Shown: piece by piece, positions 44,604 to 56,597 of the stretch | Numbering within the stretch: position 1 is the first letter of the stretch | Layout of the letters: the number at the start of each line of letters is the position of its first letter | Position numbers and translations under genes: made by a program | Assembly (NCBI GenBank): GCA_945866305.1 | Contig: CAMBGS010000001.1 | Span: 148-64,147 of the forward strand | DNA length: 64,000 bases | Reading direction: 5' to 3' | Origin: Bifidobacterium breve | Lineage (GTDB): Bacteria; Actinomycetota; Actinomycetes; Nanopelagicales; Nanopelagicaceae | Notes under the pieces: generated by a model | Told to the model about the DNA's origin: nothing | The model's database searches: none | Seen by the model: only the letters and a program-made list of their open reading frames with translations

Positions 44604-45746
<1,143 letters not shown>

Positions 45747-45763: not shown

Positions 45764-46639
45764 TTAGGCGCCGATTGCCTGCTTAATTTCTGAACAAGCC
45801 AGCGCTAAATCATCGGCAAAGGCTGCATCTACACACTCAGTGCGATCCCAGCCTGGTCCACCGAGGATAAAGCGCGGTGAAGGTCGAACAGCTGGAATAT
45901 CGCGGAAGAATTTTGGGTCTCCATTTTTAGGTAGTTGCGCCCAGAGAAAGACTGCTGGTGGCGCGCTGCGCTCAACCACATTAGAGAGGGCTTCCAGAGG
46001 CGTGCGCGCTCCCATGAAATTGCATTCAATCTTCGCCTCGGCTAACGCTGCATGTAAAGCGTGTAGCGCAAGGCAATGCAGTTCTTCACCAACTGATGCT
46101 AGTAAGACGGGGCGGGCATTTAACGGTGTTTTAATCGTCTTGGCACGTTCTCTCAAAATCCCAGTAATTATCTCTGAAAGTAAGTGCTCTACTTCAATGC
46201 CAGCACCGGTTTCAGCCCAAATATCTCCAACAATAATTAGCACAGGAACTATTACTTCTTGCCAGCTATCAATTACTCCATATTTTTCAATATCTCTACG
46301 GATGATTGTTTCAACAAAATTTCTATCCAAAGAATTGGCGGCCTTAACTATTGCTGCGACTACATCCTCGCGAACCTCAAGTGACTTAATGATCTTTTCA
46401 ACTTTTACTTCGCCTTTGTGGGTAAGTGCTTGTTCTGCAGCATCAGCCGGAGCGACCCCTGCTGAAATTAATCGGCGCATCAAAGTTAACTTTGCTAAAT
46501 CACTTGCGCAGTAACGGCGGTGCTCACCAGCCTCGTGTCCAGATGGTCCAAGGCCATAGCGCCGAGCCCAGGTTCGAAGCGTGGCCGGGGCGACTCCGAT
46601 TTGTCGGGCAACCGCCGCAACCGTCAAGAGCTCTTCCAT
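45764..46639 (-). CDS. MerR-HTH + B12-binding-domain regulator (CarH/LitR-like)
   Basis: TVAAVARQIGVAPATLRTWARRYG..HRRY MerR HTH; WAETGAGIEVEH (W-x9-EH); GEELHCL (ExH); ILGGPGW; start ATG 46639. Confidence 0.82.
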   Translation of the reverse strand: MEELLTVAAVARQIGVAPATLRTWARRYGLGPSGHEAGEHRRYCASDLAKLTLMRRLISAGVAPADAAEQALTHKGEVKVEKIIKSLEVREDVVAAIVKAANSLDRNFVETIIRRDIEKYGVIDSWQEVIVPVLIIVGDIWAETGAGIEVEHLLSEIITGILRERAKTIKTPLNARPVLLASVGEELHCLALHALHAALAEAKIECNFMGARTPLEALSNVVERSAPPAVFLWAQLPKNGDPKFFRDIPAVRPSPRFILGGPGWDRTECVDAAFADDLALACSEIKQAIGA

Positions 46640-46703
46640 GGCCCTATCGTGGCGTGAAGTAGCCCACCTCACCACTTGAAACACGCTCACAGTGTGGCGA
46701 AAC

Positions 46704-46757
46704 GAACAACTTTTGGCGCGTTAGATACTTGAACAACCTATGGCGCGGTTGTAAGGT
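46704..46757 (+). promoter_or_regulatory. whiB3 promoter with candidate operator repeats
   Basis: -35 TTGAAC (46729-34), 17-nt spacer, -10 TAAGGT (46752-57); 17-bp direct repeats at 46704 and 46731 (15/17 identical); inverted repeat ACAACC-N8-GGTTGT (46733-46752). Confidence 0.65.
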
Positions 46758-46787
46758 TGGGATACTCGACAAAGCAAGGAGACCAAC

Positions 46788-47087
46788 ATGGCTGAACTAT
46801 CACGTCTACCGCTTCCAATCGCAGATCATTGGGAATGGCAGTACCAAGGCGCTTGCCGCGAACTCCCTGCCGAGATGTTCTTTCATCCAGATGGCGAACG
46901 TGGACCACGACGCCGCAATCGCGAGAACGCTGCAAAAGCGGTCTGCGCAGCTTGCCCAGTAATCGCAGCTTGTCGCGCACACGCTTTGGCAGTTCAAGAG
47001 CCATACGGAATTTGGGGCGGTCTCTCAGAAGATGATCGCGCAGTATTGCTCGGTAAAGAAGAGCCAACTATTTACGAAGCGTCATAA
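46788..47087 (+). CDS. whiB3: WhiB-family Fe-S transcription factor, WhiB3/WhiD-like
   Basis: WEWQYQGAC, FFHPDGERG, CAACPVIAAC, EPYGIWGGLSE; SD AAGGAG. Confidence 0.88.
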   Translation: MAELSRLPLPIADHWEWQYQGACRELPAEMFFHPDGERGPRRRNRENAAKAVCAACPVIAACRAHALAVQEPYGIWGGLSEDDRAVLLGKEEPTIYEAS

Positions 47088-47109: not shown

Positions 47110-47145
47110 AAATCCCCCGCACTCAATGAGTACGGGGGATTTTTT
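47110..47145. terminator. Bidirectional intrinsic terminator (whiB3/groEL)
   Basis: AAATCCCCCGCACTC-AAT-GAGTACGGGGGATTTTTT. Confidence 0.85.
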
Positions 47146-47149
47146 AAAC

Positions 47150-49083
<1,934 letters not shown>

Positions 49084-51684: not shown

Positions 51685-53331
51685 TTATTTGCTGTAGTAC
51701 TTCATCCATGGATACAAAGTATCGCGGTCGATAACAAGGCCTTTTGCCTTGCGGACCTTTGATAGCTGTAAACCAGACCAAGGCAAGTTACCGTTCTCGG
51801 CTGCAGAAATTGCAGTATCGATTACGAGCTTGTATTGAGCCATAGTGAAGTTGGTGTGACCGGCACCTGGTGTATTTGCTATTGACACTGGTGTTCCGTC
51901 AGCATTGAACTTTGACCAAGTCTTAGGAGTTACGCTCCAAAGAACTTGCAACTTACGCACTGGTGCTGCGTATGCACCGCTCTTTTGAGCGGCTTTCTTA
52001 GCAGCAGCCTTTGCGGCAGCAAAGTCTTCCTCATACAAATCAGAGTAGCGCTGAATGATTCCGGCTGGCTCGATTGGATCGTGCTGACCGATCATCATCA
52101 CTGTTGGGACTTTGATCTTGCCAGTGTGATTATAGGCAGCAGCAGCCTTTGCCAGCGCAGCAGCATCACCCTTGATGCGTGGTGCATCTGGATTTGCAGC
52201 GACAAGTGTCGACAACATTCCAGCGATTGATGCGTTACCACCAAGACCTGCGTTAAAGACAGTGCGATCTTCATCGCTTAACTGCTTTGCGTAATCAGTC
52301 TTCTGAGTATCCGCCCAAACTCCACCCATCTTCGTTTCCAGATCGCGTGCACCGGCAAGTGCATAATTCAACATACCGGCGATGTTTTCTAGAACGGCAA
52401 GTGCTGGTGCATATGCCAATGGCCATGCAGTAACAGCTGCGCCACCAGGAGTTGAGATGCTGTCAAAGGATGTGCTCTGGGTGCTGACACCGGACAAAAG
52501 ACCGATCATCAAGAGCGCACTGCGTGATGGAATTCCCTTAGCCGCAAGTGCTTTTGCTGATGTACTTGAAGTTGTTGGCCAAGCACCTGTTGCAACGCCG
52601 GCCTTAAGAGCACCGAGCAATGCAGCGTATTTAGCGCCGTCTCCCAGCATCTGCAGATCACCAGCAAGTCCTGGGGCATAACCAGTTAACTTAATTGATG
52701 GATCAAACCAAGTTTTAAGTAGCCACAACATATCAATGAAGTACTTGGTCTGTGAGTTAAATGCATCAACGGGGTTCATAACCGCAGCTGAAGCAAGTAG
52801 CTCTGGGTTCTTCTCGGCAAATGCCTGAGTAATTCCGCCACCCATTGAGTAACCCCAAGCAACAACCTTCTTAGTTGTTGTGAACTTTGTCTTAAAGACA
52901 CCAACTAATTCAGCGTTTGTCTTTAGCGCTTCATCAAGGTTCCATGCCTGAGTGCTGAAACCAGAACCCATCACAGCAACGCCCTTATCAGTTAGGTACT
53001 TAATGAGTTCAGCGTTTCCGCCGTTGTCACCAGTACCGTTTGGAGCTAACTGCGCTGAAGAGTCAATCGGTAACGTGTAACCAGGCACATAGGTGTTTGA
53101 ACCAAACCCGTGTGACCAGATAGTTACGGTGCCATTAAATGTTGCAGGGACAACCATCTTGTAGGCAGCGCCGTCAGATGTAGTTCCGGTACAAGTCTGT
53201 ACTGGCGTTTTGCCATCACAAGTTGGACCAGTTGCCGCAGCGTTTGCTGGTGCTGCAACTACCAGCGTTGCAAGCAACGCAGTTGTTGAAACTAGCGCGA
53301 ATGCGCGTGATTTAAACGATGTAGTTCTCAT
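51685..53331 (-). CDS. Secreted alpha/beta-hydrolase of unknown substrate
   Basis: Sec signal (..APANA|AAT); WSHG oxyanion motif; nucleophile elbow GYSMGG; candidate Asp (GQHDP) and His (GAGHTNF). Confidence 0.75.
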   Translation of the reverse strand: MRTTSFKSRAFALVSTTALLATLVVAAPANAAATGPTCDGKTPVQTCTGTTSDGAAYKMVVPATFNGTVTIWSHGFGSNTYVPGYTLPIDSSAQLAPNGTGDNGGNAELIKYLTDKGVAVMGSGFSTQAWNLDEALKTNAELVGVFKTKFTTTKKVVAWGYSMGGGITQAFAEKNPELLASAAVMNPVDAFNSQTKYFIDMLWLLKTWFDPSIKLTGYAPGLAGDLQMLGDGAKYAALLGALKAGVATGAWPTTSSTSAKALAAKGIPSRSALLMIGLLSGVSTQSTSFDSISTPGGAAVTAWPLAYAPALAVLENIAGMLNYALAGARDLETKMGGVWADTQKTDYAKQLSDEDRTVFNAGLGGNASIAGMLSTLVAANPDAPRIKGDAAALAKAAAAYNHTGKIKVPTVMMIGQHDPIEPAGIIQRYSDLYEEDFAAAKAAAKKAAQKSGAYAAPVRKLQVLWSVTPKTWSKFNADGTPVSIANTPGAGHTNFTMAQYKLVIDTAISAAENGNLPWSGLQLSKVRKAKGLVIDRDTLYPWMKYYSK

Positions 53332-54638
53332 TAGTTTGGCAATCCCTTCGCAGGCATCTTTGGACGAGCATAGGTTGATTTCACAACAGCGCCAGTACCG
53401 GAATCTGTGGTGTAAGGCGTGTATGTGAATGTGTCGTTAGGGACAAGATCGCCAGTACGGTTGAAAGTACCGAACCAGTATCCGTTGTAACCGACGTTGC
53501 TTGTCTTGGAATAGTTCAGAGGAACCAAGCCAGCGTTAGCAAATTTCGCTCCATTGTTATCAATGGCGGCAAGAAGTGATTTACGAGTTAAGTTCTTACC
53601 AGCGGACTGAAGGGCCTGAACAGCAATAAATGCGGTATTCATACCGATAAGTGCCCAGCTAGTGAACTTAGCGCCTTTGTTGTACTGAGTATTAATATCC
53701 TTGAACAACTCAACGTACTCATCCTTTGGATCAACAACTGATGGCATAAATGACATCGAGGTTGCGCCAATGATGTAAGGAACTGTCGCTGGGTTAATTG
53801 ATCCGATATCTGCACCGACAGAACCAAGGATCCACTTAGGCGCATATTGCACCTTTGCAGCGGCCAAGATTGTGTACAAGGTTGCACTTGCTACACCGAA
53901 TACAACCTGGACTTCGCATCCCTTGCCTTTGAACTTAGTGATCCATGATTCTGGGACGCCAGCCACACCTTGAGATAGTGATGGGTAAGCAACGGTTTCT
54001 GCGAATACTAAGTTGCCGTAATCCTTACCGAAGCCGACAAGAGCGTCATCGCCAAAGTCATCATCCTGATACAACAGACAAACTTTCTTACCTGGGTAAG
54101 TTTCGTTTACATATTTACCCATCAACTTTGCTTCCATAATGTATGAAGGCAAGATGGTGGATGAAGTTGGATAGGTTTTACGATTAGTAAATCCGCTAAA
54201 GCCAGTGTTAACAAAGAGGCTTGGGATTCCGCGGCGGCCGAGGTTTACGGCAGATGCAACAGCTTTATTATTTGCTGTTCCAAGAGCGCCGATAACTGCA
54301 AGGACCTTATCTTTACCAATTAAATCTTGAGTGTTCTGAATGGCTTGCTTTGGAAGATAACCATCATTTTTTACAACAAGGCTGATCTTGCGACCATTTA
54401 CGCCACCGTTTGCGTTGACATAATCAAAATATGCCTTCATCGCACCTGGTAGTTGGTTGTAGCCGAAGCTGGCTGAGCCTGTCATTGGCAAGGTGATGCC
54501 AAGTTTGATTGTGCTTGAGGTGACGCCAATTTCTGAACGCGGCGACACAGCCTGTGCCGGCATAACAGAGAGTGAGAGCGCTGTTGTAGCCATCACCGCG
54601 GAAGCTACGAGAAACTTCCGACGAGTCGTTCTGATCAT
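53331..54638 (-). CDS. Liv/HAAT-type ABC substrate-binding protein
   Basis: Tat-like TRRKFL signal; IKLGITLPMTG, YVNANGGVNGRKI, YQDDDFG. Confidence 0.85.
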   Translation of the reverse strand: MIRTTRRKFLVASAVMATTALSLSVMPAQAVSPRSEIGVTSSTIKLGITLPMTGSASFGYNQLPGAMKAYFDYVNANGGVNGRKISLVVKNDGYLPKQAIQNTQDLIGKDKVLAVIGALGTANNKAVASAVNLGRRGIPSLFVNTGFSGFTNRKTYPTSSTILPSYIMEAKLMGKYVNETYPGKKVCLLYQDDDFGDDALVGFGKDYGNLVFAETVAYPSLSQGVAGVPESWITKFKGKGCEVQVVFGVASATLYTILAAAKVQYAPKWILGSVGADIGSINPATVPYIIGATSMSFMPSVVDPKDEYVELFKDINTQYNKGAKFTSWALIGMNTAFIAVQALQSAGKNLTRKSLLAAIDNNGAKFANAGLVPLNYSKTSNVGYNGYWFGTFNRTGDLVPNDTFTYTPYTTDSGTGAVVKSTYARPKMPAKGLPN

Positions 54639-54660
54639 ATTTTTCCTTCCATCGAGGGGT

Positions 54661-54701
54661 ATAACGGGGTAGATCTGTACTGCTTAGTGCCCGTTATCAT
54701 A
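54661..54701 (-). promoter_or_regulatory. Internal promoter for binding protein + hydrolase, with inverted repeat
   Basis: -10 TATGAT (54701-54696); 8-bp inverted repeat ATAACGGG (54661-68)/CCCGTTAT (54690-97); SD GGAAGG before ATG 54638. Confidence 0.5.
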
Positions 54702-54715
54702 CGAGCGCTTTACAT

Positions 54716-55696
54716 CTACTTACTGTGACGCGACCGCAACTTTTCGATCGGACCTTTCGGGGCTAAGAAGACCGTCAAGATCAAAAGCGCGCTCACGATG
54801 AAATCTGGCAACACCGTGGCCAGACTCTCGGACCCGCTCCATCGATCTGAGATCGACGAGGCAATCAGAGGTATCGCTACCAGTGCTACAGAACCAATAA
54901 TGACGCCTCCGAGGGTGTTTACGCCAGCGAGGACCGCTCCAGTGGCGATAAAAAAGGAGAGGGCGAGCGGAAATGCGCTCGGCGAGACGTTATTCATGGT
55001 CATCGCCAACAACGCCCCAGCCAGGCCGGCTATTCCCGCACTCACGGTGAAGGCCAAGACCTTGGTGCGCCCCAGATTGATTCCAGCGATTTCGGCAGCG
55101 ACTTCATTGCTTTTCACGGCTAGCCAGGAGCGACCGTAGCGTGATCGCAGAATATTTTGCACCCACCACATGGAAATTAGCGCTGCCAGAGTTGCAATCC
55201 AAAGGAACCATTTATATTGAGTAAAACTTTCACCAAAGGAGAGCGGCGGCCATCCTGCATCAAATGAAATTCCTTGCTCGCCACCTAAAATCGAAAATTG
55301 ATTTGCAATCGAAGGTAGTCCAACGGCTAGCGCCAAAGTTGTTCCAGCTAAATATGGACCAGATAAACGCGCAGCTGCCGCTCCAAGAATTGCGCCAAAG
55401 AGCGCTGTTGCTAAAACTGCTGCTGCAAAACAGATCCAAATTGGCGCGCCAAAATAGATTTGCGTGAGGGCGGCGGTGTAAGCACCGACTGCAAGGAGTG
55501 CGCCGTGACCAAGAGATATTTGCCCCGAGTAGCCGGTTAATAAAATTATTGATGCAATTGCAACTACGAAGACTGCAACAGTTGCGCCTTGGTAAGCCCG
55601 CCACTCATCCACGATATTGCTCAAGATATAAACAACCAAACCAATTAGCACAAAGCCAATGAAGCGATGCTTATTTGTAATTTGACGGCTATGCAC
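54716..55696 (-). CDS. HAAT-type ABC permease (LivM-like)
   Basis: GYSGQISLGHG, RLSGPYLA, AGIAGLAGAL; GTG 55696 after SD AGGTGG. Confidence 0.88.
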   Translation of the reverse strand: MHSRQITNKHRFIGFVLIGLVVYILSNIVDEWRAYQGATVAVFVVAIASIILLTGYSGQISLGHGALLAVGAYTAALTQIYFGAPIWICFAAAVLATALFGAILGAAAARLSGPYLAGTTLALAVGLPSIANQFSILGGEQGISFDAGWPPLSFGESFTQYKWFLWIATLAALISMWWVQNILRSRYGRSWLAVKSNEVAAEIAGINLGRTKVLAFTVSAGIAGLAGALLAMTMNNVSPSAFPLALSFFIATGAVLAGVNTLGGVIIGSVALVAIPLIASSISDRWSGSESLATVLPDFIVSALLILTVFLAPKGPIEKLRSRHSK

Positions 55697-56597
55697 GGCG
55701 ACCACCTTTTACTCCAATGATTCCGTGCGGTCTTAACAACAAAACTAGAATCAAAATTAAGAATGCGGAGAAGAAAACTAGAGATCCACCTACATACATC
55801 AAGATAATCGCCAAGATAATTCCGAGAGTTAATCCGCCAATCACCGCTCCAATTAAACTTTCGATTCCACCGATTACTGCAGCGACAAACCCAAACACTA
55901 AGAGCAGACTAAATTCAAATGCTTCGGGTGTGACAGAACCAGAACCGTTTACAGTCTGCAAGATTCCAGCGGTCGCGCCTGCAGCGCCGGAGATTGCCCA
56001 ACCTAATGTGCGAATCAAGTCGACTCGAATTCCGGATAGCCTTGAAATTTCTGGTGCAAACGATGCTGCTCGTAAAGAAAGTCCTAAATTTGTCCGTTGG
56101 AAAATCAGAGTTAACCCGATCATCAGGACTAGCACTATCCCAAGAATCATTAGGCGCAGTGGAGAAAGGGCGATACTTTCACCCGAGACGATAAATCCCT
56201 TGTCAGAAAGAGGTGGAGAGATTACGCCAATTTTTTCCCCGTAAATAAAATGGAGAAGTGCTTTCATAACACCGAGTATTCCCAGTGTTGCAATAATCGG
56301 TAAGAAAATCTCCTGAGTCCTCTCACCAGAGCGGTGAAGAAGCGGACGTAAAAAGAAGTACTCAATGAAAGCTGAAAGCGCCGCACCAGCCAACATTGCA
56401 ACAGGCAGGGCGATCCAAAACGAGCCAGTTGTTTCTAGAATCGTTGCACCGACAAAAGTTGATGCTAAAGCGATTCCACCCGCGGCAAAGTTAACTACGC
56501 GCGTACTGCGCCATACCAACACGATTGCAATCGCCATAAGTGAATAAATTGAACCGGCAGTGATGCCGATCAGCAGCGTATTTACAAATTCAAACAT
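55689..56597 (-). CDS. HAAT-type ABC permease (LivH-like)
   Basis: GSIYSLMA, VVNFA, TNLGLSLRA, AAVIGG. Confidence 0.88.
   Translation of the reverse strand: MFEFVNTLLIGITAGSIYSLMAIAIVLVWRSTRVVNFAAGGIALASTFVGATILETTGSFWIALPVAMLAGAALSAFIEYFFLRPLLHRSGERTQEIFLPIIATLGILGVMKALLHFIYGEKIGVISPPLSDKGFIVSGESIALSPLRLMILGIVLVLMIGLTLIFQRTNLGLSLRAASFAPEISRLSGIRVDLIRTLGWAISGAAGATAGILQTVNGSGSVTPEAFEFSLLLVFGFVAAVIGGIESLIGAVIGGLTLGIILAIILMYVGGSLVFFSAFLILILVLLLRPHGIIGVKGGRRA

Follow-up and report, generated by a model that had tools for sequence, protein, structure and literature searches.

The 64,000-nucleotide stretch of DNA analysed here (the window) carries, head to head, a gene for a B12-domain regulator of the LitR/CarH family and a gene for the Fe-S regulator WhiB3, and this LitR-whiB3 module is real, conserved and apparently undescribed (Table 1). 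On balance, we read the regulator as a Streptomyces-type LitR that would act as an adenosylcobalamin (AdoCbl)-dependent, light-released repressor with the whiB3 promoter as its main predicted target. The basis of this reading is the domains and fold of the protein, its W-x9-EH motif and His188, the divergent pairing with whiB3, and a DNA repeat that tracks the regulator gene. The closest named relatives of the host are Ca. Planktophila and other Nanopelagicaceae.

Table 1. Features of the LitR-whiB3 locus (window coordinates).
Feature	Position	Strand	Remarks
guaB (IMP dehydrogenase)	44604..45719	-	conserved downstream neighbour of the regulator
LitR/CarH-family regulator, Streptomyces-LitR type	45764..46639	-	291 aa; ORF translation, Pfam domains, fold match
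Inferred regulator promoter	46646..46675	-	-10-like hexamer 46646-46651, conserved block 46669-46675; read by eye
Second, weaker repeat-pair copy	46702..46723	+	27 bp upstream of the operator; retained in part of the genus
Predicted operator, two tandem 11-bp direct repeats	46729..46750	+	spans the whiB3 -35 and most of the spacer
whiB3 -35 hexamer	46729-46734	+	within the first repeat
Predicted whiB3 -10 hexamer (TAnnnT)	46752..46757	+	conserved columns; 17 bp after the -35
Shine-Dalgarno-like AGGAG of whiB3	46777..46781	+	sequence
whiB3/whiD-subclass Fe-S regulator	46788..47087	+	99 aa; four Cys; best solved relative WhiB3
Terminator-like hairpin, 15 pairs	47110..47142	.	between convergent whiB3 and groEL1
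groEL1	47150..48787	-	conserved neighbour beyond whiB3

The regulator consists of a MerR DNA-binding domain, a four-helix cap containing W141-x9-E151-H152, and a Rossmann domain with H188, which are the three domains of class I LitR/CarH proteins (MerR, four-helix bundle, Rossmann B12). Pfam placed MerR_1 at residues 6-68 and B12-binding_2 at residues 96-163, above cut-off; the B12-binding family aligned with residues 178-272 at 22.6 bits, below its cut-off of 32.1. An AlphaFold model (mean pLDDT 90.6) matched T. thermophilus CarH in Foldseek at E 2e-17 with probability 1.0, and all 25 fold matches listed for the regulator were CarH structures. An earlier note on this DNA had proposed a CarH/LitR-type sensor, and the MerR and B12 domains, the signature residues in their places and the CarH fold all agree with that proposal. 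The signature residues are well kept among the 95 proteins encoded next to whiB3: W-x9-EH occurs in 93 of them, W141 likewise in 93, and G138, E151, H152, H188, G210 and P214 are invariant. Of the four motifs given in the available text of PMC11796333 (SignatureFinder), the regulator has GxxW, EH and GxxxP; the fourth, GxxH, is not matched, with its Gly present in only 5 of the 95 linked proteins.

The B12 motif is E/DxHx2Gx41SxTx22-27GG in the available part of PMC8156234. The regulator reads E186-x-H188-x2-A191, with FLWAQ at 231-235, and the spacing is preserved (41 residues between A191 and W233, 24 from Q235 to G260-G261). Against the canonical form ExHx2Gx41SxT/Vx22-27GG, the E, the H, the GG pair and the spacing are kept, but A191 stands for G, W233 for S and Q235 for T. 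Trp occupies the Ser position in 90 of the 95 linked proteins and Pro or Ala the Gly position in 92. By alignment, Trp233 takes the place of the Ser that lines the pocket for the nucleotide tail, and may narrow this pocket.

It had been suggested from these substitutions that the ligand could be a cobinamide or heme, and this was not supported. The same substitutions occur in Q9RI53 of S. coelicolor, which has ENHTLP, LWSQ and GPGW at the corresponding places, and in 14 of 14 homologues from other contexts, beside carotenoid (7), photolyase (1), rhodopsin (3) and ECF-sigma (3) genes, all of which have the equivalents of Trp233 and Pro/Ala191. The cap motif of these 14 homologues (four exact W-x9-EH, three W-x10-EH) is less faithful than that of the whiB3-linked proteins. 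Among the sequences compared, the altered B12 motif is the norm for this branch of LitR proteins. According to the available text of PMC11519972 and PMC12705666, the LitR of Streptomyces is responsive to blue and green light, induction is lost in a mutant of B12 synthesis, and B12 supplementation strengthens repression in the dark; the former source also states that the biochemistry of S. coelicolor LitR is still to be worked out. Because the LitR-type protein of S. coelicolor has the altered motif too, Streptomyces LitR depends on B12 in vivo and the present host makes and needs AdoCbl (see below), the motif does not point to heme. A pocket that accommodates cobinamide, heme or a different tetrapyrrole, as a sensor of redox or oxygen, would fit a tail pocket narrowed by the Trp and Pro/Ala residues. 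It would also fit the contexts of three homologues (L079, L129 and L078), two of them divergent from cytochrome b genes (family f38) and one from a gene for a HemD-domain regulator. The S. coelicolor residues, the B12 dependence of Streptomyces LitR and the exclusively CarH fold matches among those listed speak against such a pocket, and we consider it improbable. An operator-like site of 13.2 bits was seen at L079.

The partly replaced motif could also belong to a cofactor-free repressor that leaves its DNA in response to a partner protein or some other signal, in the manner of M. xanthus CarA, which has a B12 motif yet acts without B12 (PMC8156234, available part). The same source describes CarA as lacking W-x9-EH, which this regulator keeps. 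Among the neighbours, no conserved anti-repressor-like gene was noticed, and the regulator directly abuts guaB and whiB3 in the window. We therefore give a CarA-like mode of action little probability.

The divergent gene encodes a protein whose match to the solved structure of WhiB3 (E 1e-33) was far better than that to WhiB1 (E 5e-13). It has four Cys, the G(I/V)WGG turn, and R38 and R42 of the Arg-rich DNA-binding motif, whose equivalents are DNA-binding residues of the subclass according to the available text of PMC10245118. From its family, the protein is expected to carry a [4Fe-4S] cluster and to be a partner of sigma-A region 4. The two ATGs are separated by 148 bases (46640-46787), exactly the head-to-head layout noticed earlier. 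In RNA runs, contigs of relatives cover whiB3 in four of four runs, one of them spanning 46778-47087; these contigs come from small shares of the runs and show coverage, not a start site, an expression level or a day/night pattern. The ORFs between 36 and 56 kb include none recognised as a carotenoid or photolyase gene, in agreement with the earlier remark that carotenoid genes are not adjacent; the neighbouring target genes of class I LitR/CarH systems are thus missing here. The crtB, photolyase and rhodopsin genes were located on other contigs of the same genome. Elsewhere in the window, at 51685-56597, translations indicate a cluster for an ABC transporter of the branched-chain type, preceded by an ORF for a secreted alpha/beta-hydrolase-like protein. 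The guaB product is 371 aa long, about the size found in all own-genus loci, while about 1,490 bases were matched in other families; judging by this length, the CBS subdomain has probably been deleted in the genus.

We then asked how widely the pairing is conserved. The regulator gene was present in 15 of 15 same-genus genomes of at least 99% completeness, and some regulator match was found in 153 of 251 genomes across the class, a tally that takes in two unpublished genomes (G051 and G058). We took 144 homologous loci, mostly from best hits, and dropped four duplicates. A divergent whiB3 lay beside the regulator in 96 of the remaining 140 loci (95 within 600 bp), representing 27 families and 42 genera, although this count overstates independence because the linked loci are kin and mostly best hits. 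The pair usually sits between groEL1 and guaB. In seven of the other loci the regulator occupies the groEL-guaB place but whiB3 is missing; the remaining 37 lie elsewhere. Among named GTDB loci the pair was found in 76 of 80; three of the other four were too short, and one (Actinomadura flavalba) had no whiB. A WhiB3-like match at E 1e-20 was missing in 16 of 20 listed genomes without the regulator. The proposed pairing is thereby confirmed well beyond this genome. The accompanying idea of an adaptation to surface water was not supported: the pair was also found in two Kibdelosporangium isolates, in bins of Frankiales and Mycobacteriales and in acAMD-2, and it occurs in genomes of up to 5.7 Mb, in soil and other lineages. 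Because the pair spans 27 families, with isolates and bins of varied lineages, the module is old and general, and is not a product of streamlining.

Some loci depart from the usual arrangement. In family f17 (L024, L072, L107, L110, L114, L142, L143) the regulator has intact motifs and lies at the groEL-guaB place; no WhiB3-like match was found in 15 genomes of this family, and the operator described below was likewise not found at the f17 loci. At L087 (G081:C5) the regulator is split across two frames and the operator is kept, reflecting a frameshift or an assembly error. A same-genus genome has, at L031 (G013:C69:15594-16256), a second CarH-like gene, which is more canonical and lies divergent from a gene for a fasciclin-domain protein.

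The spacers between the paired genes share a 25-bp block, with a TTGA(A/C)C hexamer, 17 bp and then TAnnnT. The first 22 bp of the block form the predicted operator, in which each 11-bp repeat has TG at positions 2-3. A start codon follows the second hexamer by 6-7 nt in 11 of 91 loci, which is consistent with this hexamer being the -10 of what would there be a leaderless mRNA. In the present genome the whiB3 transcript is predicted to start near 46764. The regulator mRNA itself is likely leaderless, its -10-like hexamer lying 6 nt before the ATG. A generic promoter scan missed the whiB3 promoter. According to the available part of PMC8156234, the sites bound by CarH are 11-bp repeats in tandem (nAnnTnnACAn), and in CarA/CarH systems the operator overlaps the -35. 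Read on the opposite strand, the family consensus of the operator keeps four of the five defined bases of the CarH consensus in repeat 1 and three of five in repeat 2. In its sequence pattern (tandem 11-bp direct repeats over the -35 of the target) and in its co-occurrence with the regulator, the site thus resembles an operator of the CarH type, and its place over the -35 of a promoter with a normal 17-bp spacer suggests repression. The weaker copy upstream scores 15.6 bits, inside the range of shuffled maxima.

A matrix was built from 33 own-genus sites, with the 99th percentile of shuffled sequences (6.0 bits) as threshold. Of 62 linked loci from other families, 58 had a site above threshold and four scored below it; both of two linked loci added later also had one (60/64). 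At whiB3-like loci without an adjacent regulator there were none (0/14 and 0/18, together 0/32), even where the chromosomal position is unchanged; about six of these loci are possibly not true whiB3 but paralogues. In family f40, the two linked loci scored 21.9 and nine unlinked loci 2.7 or less. A matrix from the other families detected the site at every one of the 76 named linked loci, a set that overlaps its training loci in kinship and partly in identity. The operator was absent from all seven loci in which the regulator is kept and whiB3 lost. It was also not found at L147 (G132:C1:800218-803472), where a degenerate regulator lacking the EH and the cobalt His is still divergent from whiB3.

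The site requires both genes, which speaks against autoregulation by WhiB3 and against an ordinary promoter, with the proviso that the loci are kin and not independent. The order groEL1-whiB3-guaB is found also in loci without the regulator, as would be expected if the pairing were old gene order only and the conserved DNA a plain promoter or a site for WhiB3 or another factor. We nonetheless hold this to be highly improbable, given that the conserved spacer bases vanish in all 32 regulator-less loci. The regulatory link between sensor and whiB3 proposed in the earlier note is backed by this co-inherited repeat, and it is probable, from the comparative sequence evidence, that the regulator controls whiB3 directly. 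Because the repeat is found only where the sensor adjoins, light likely acts on whiB3 by way of this predicted repressor.

In a scan of this genome (83% complete), the whiB3 site was the only outstanding one, at 32.2 bits; the next-best sites scored 21.1 and lower, with shuffled maxima of 13.8-19.5. A wider direct regulon was considered and rejected, as the five next-best sites that were checked all sit within long open frames. None of 10 rhodopsin and photolyase loci had an operator score above 6.8. Scores of 10-12 near crtB in four of five loci fall inside a kinase-like ORF, and a crtB operator was discarded. Effects beyond whiB3 would run through WhiB3. A half-repeat in the actinorhodopsin promoter, which resembled the operator, was also dismissed, only 1 of 19 usable leaders exceeding 6 bits (32 loci, 13 without the anchor). 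The actinorhodopsin leaders (L257-L261, L294-L316; G000:C25) have an element of their own, a conserved hairpin-like structure with a fixed CCTCGAGG core and covarying flanks. Among 32 loci searched with that anchor, 19 have the CCTCGAGG-core element, 60-90 nt ahead of the start of actinorhodopsin; it is possibly a leader RNA structure or an operator.

The host appears equipped for the proposed cofactor. A PduO-type adenosyltransferase, MetH, a cobalamin riboswitch match and class II NrdJ were found for the host in five of five genomes; neither a class I ribonucleotide reductase beta subunit nor a mutase was found there. Gene content thus indicates that the host makes and needs AdoCbl. This capacity is permissive only, because nearly every genome of the class encodes the adenosyltransferase (59 of 60 that have the locus, and 19 of 20 that lack the regulator); its co-occurrence does not discriminate and was rejected as evidence. 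The same operator could serve a regulator that mainly reports AdoCbl supply, with whiB3 derepressed when B12 is short. An apo-repressor would leave DNA in either case, the only ribonucleotide reductase found in the host is AdoCbl-dependent, acI-B is predicted to be a B12 auxotroph (PMC5574706, available text), and the pair persists in lineages from soil and elsewhere. Against it, the W-x9-EH that caps the adenosyl group is kept in 93 of 95 linked proteins, sister proteins adjoin carotenoid, photolyase and rhodopsin genes, and no operator was found at the B12 genes of this genome. We consider a supply sensor unlikely.

Under the favoured, AdoCbl- and light-dependent reading, an oligomer of the AdoCbl-bound regulator would sit on the repeats in the dark and block sigma-A polymerase. 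Blue-green light would break the Co-C bond, the oligomer would release the DNA, and WhiB3 would be made from the freed promoter. WhiB3, as an Fe-S protein and sigma-A partner, would then relay the signal to further genes, giving a two-step, one-target cascade resembling LitR-LitS, in which WhiB3 would take the role of the ECF sigma factor. We count against this reading the replaced G, S and T of the B12 motif, the unmatched GxxH, an Ala at the position of His132 of T. thermophilus CarH, and the imperfect repeats.

In two quick trees, the regulator grouped with Streptomyces LitR-type proteins, with which it shares LW(S/A)Q and GPGW, and apart from T. thermophilus CarH (SH-aLRT of the inner group 95-99). 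The whiB3-linked proteins do not form one clade (6-7 changes), and sigma-, crt- and rhodopsin-linked groups lie among them. The larger tree left out 19 own-genus and 2 truncated rows. These observations are compatible with whiB3 being an old partner of actinomycete LitR, tentatively so because the trees are quick ones with a mostly open backbone (21 of 55 inner branches open). A bolder version, possible and in our view rather doubtful, is that repression of whiB3 by a B12 photoreceptor was the ancestral job of actinomycete LitR. Light would then be an old master input of WhiB3/WhiD, still serving as a daytime one-gene switch in the most abundant bacteria of lakes, and Streptomyces- and mycobacteria-like lineages would have rewired the sensor to sigma factors or to carotenoid, photolyase or rhodopsin genes. 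Three homologues of the same branch (L125:4963-6938, L135:3965-5897 and L094:1085-3932) lie just upstream of microbial rhodopsin genes, two of them also with a divergent ECF sigma gene; B12-photoreceptor control of rhodopsin is possible in families f19 and f24.

To our knowledge, WhiB3/WhiD has been studied almost only in mycobacteria and Streptomyces, the very lineages whose loci lack the LitR-whiB3 module. If our reading is true, whiB3 is controlled by a B12 photoreceptor in many other actinomycetes, among them the dominant freshwater acI, and acI would have a concrete light-sensing circuit tied to a vitamin. The claim is directly testable, because the operator is predicted at single-base level and Kibdelosporangium provides cultured carriers. 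A Trp in the SxT position is normal for this whole branch of LitR proteins, which has no solved structure among the PDB hits. We found no paper on a LitR/MerR/B12-whiB3 pairing in the openly accessible literature searched, which covered some of the primary LitR papers. The available text of the review PMC4255298 does not mention the pairing, and that of PMC9758184, which lists five LitR classes, does not mention a whiB link.

Finally, we compared the module with known systems. The protein scored 91.3 bits against the NCBIfam CarH equivalog NF052513 (cut-off 400), and because both this cut-off and the canonical B12 motif failed, we file it, by its sequence, as a Streptomyces-type LitR with a new predicted target and not as CarH. 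With T. thermophilus CarH (PDB 5C8D/5C8E) it shares the fold, W-x9-EH, the cobalt His and tandem 11-bp repeats over the -35; it differs in overall sequence (28% identity, 79 bits), in the replaced G/S/T, in having no His132 equivalent, in a Thr for Gln25 in the recognition helix, and in a target that is not crtB/phr. SCHIC, AerR and PpaA domains have a B12-domain-like fold with a His ligand. These proteins, as far as we know, have no MerR domain, and none of their structures was among the 25 fold matches listed for the regulator. The WhiB3 partner resembles M. tuberculosis WhiB3 and Streptomyces WhiD in its four Cys, in R38 and R42 and in its locus near groEL1/guaB, but its C-terminal tail is acidic, not basic, and the Streptomyces-type and mycobacterial-type whiB3/whiD loci examined had neither an adjacent regulator nor the repeat. 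We took Q9RI53 to be the LitR of S. coelicolor: the representative of its 90% cluster has 88% identity with an S. atratus protein placed between an ECF sigma gene and a crt cluster, the order given for crt, litQ and litR in the available bioRxiv text. Q9RI53 is the nearer relative (33% identity, 146 bits), with ExHxL(P/A), LW(S/A)Q and GPGW common to both, although it has W-x10-EH where the present regulator has W-x9-EH. As in the LitR-LitS system, in which the sensor is divergent from the ECF sigma gene litS, the sensor here is divergent from a second regulator, and the Streptomyces litR-litS spacers have 11-bp repeats of their own (by eye), whose sequence differs from that of the whiB3 operator. 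Unlike LitR-LitS, the module has WhiB3 and not an ECF sigma factor as the partner, no crt genes nearby, and a fixed locus between groEL1 and guaB.
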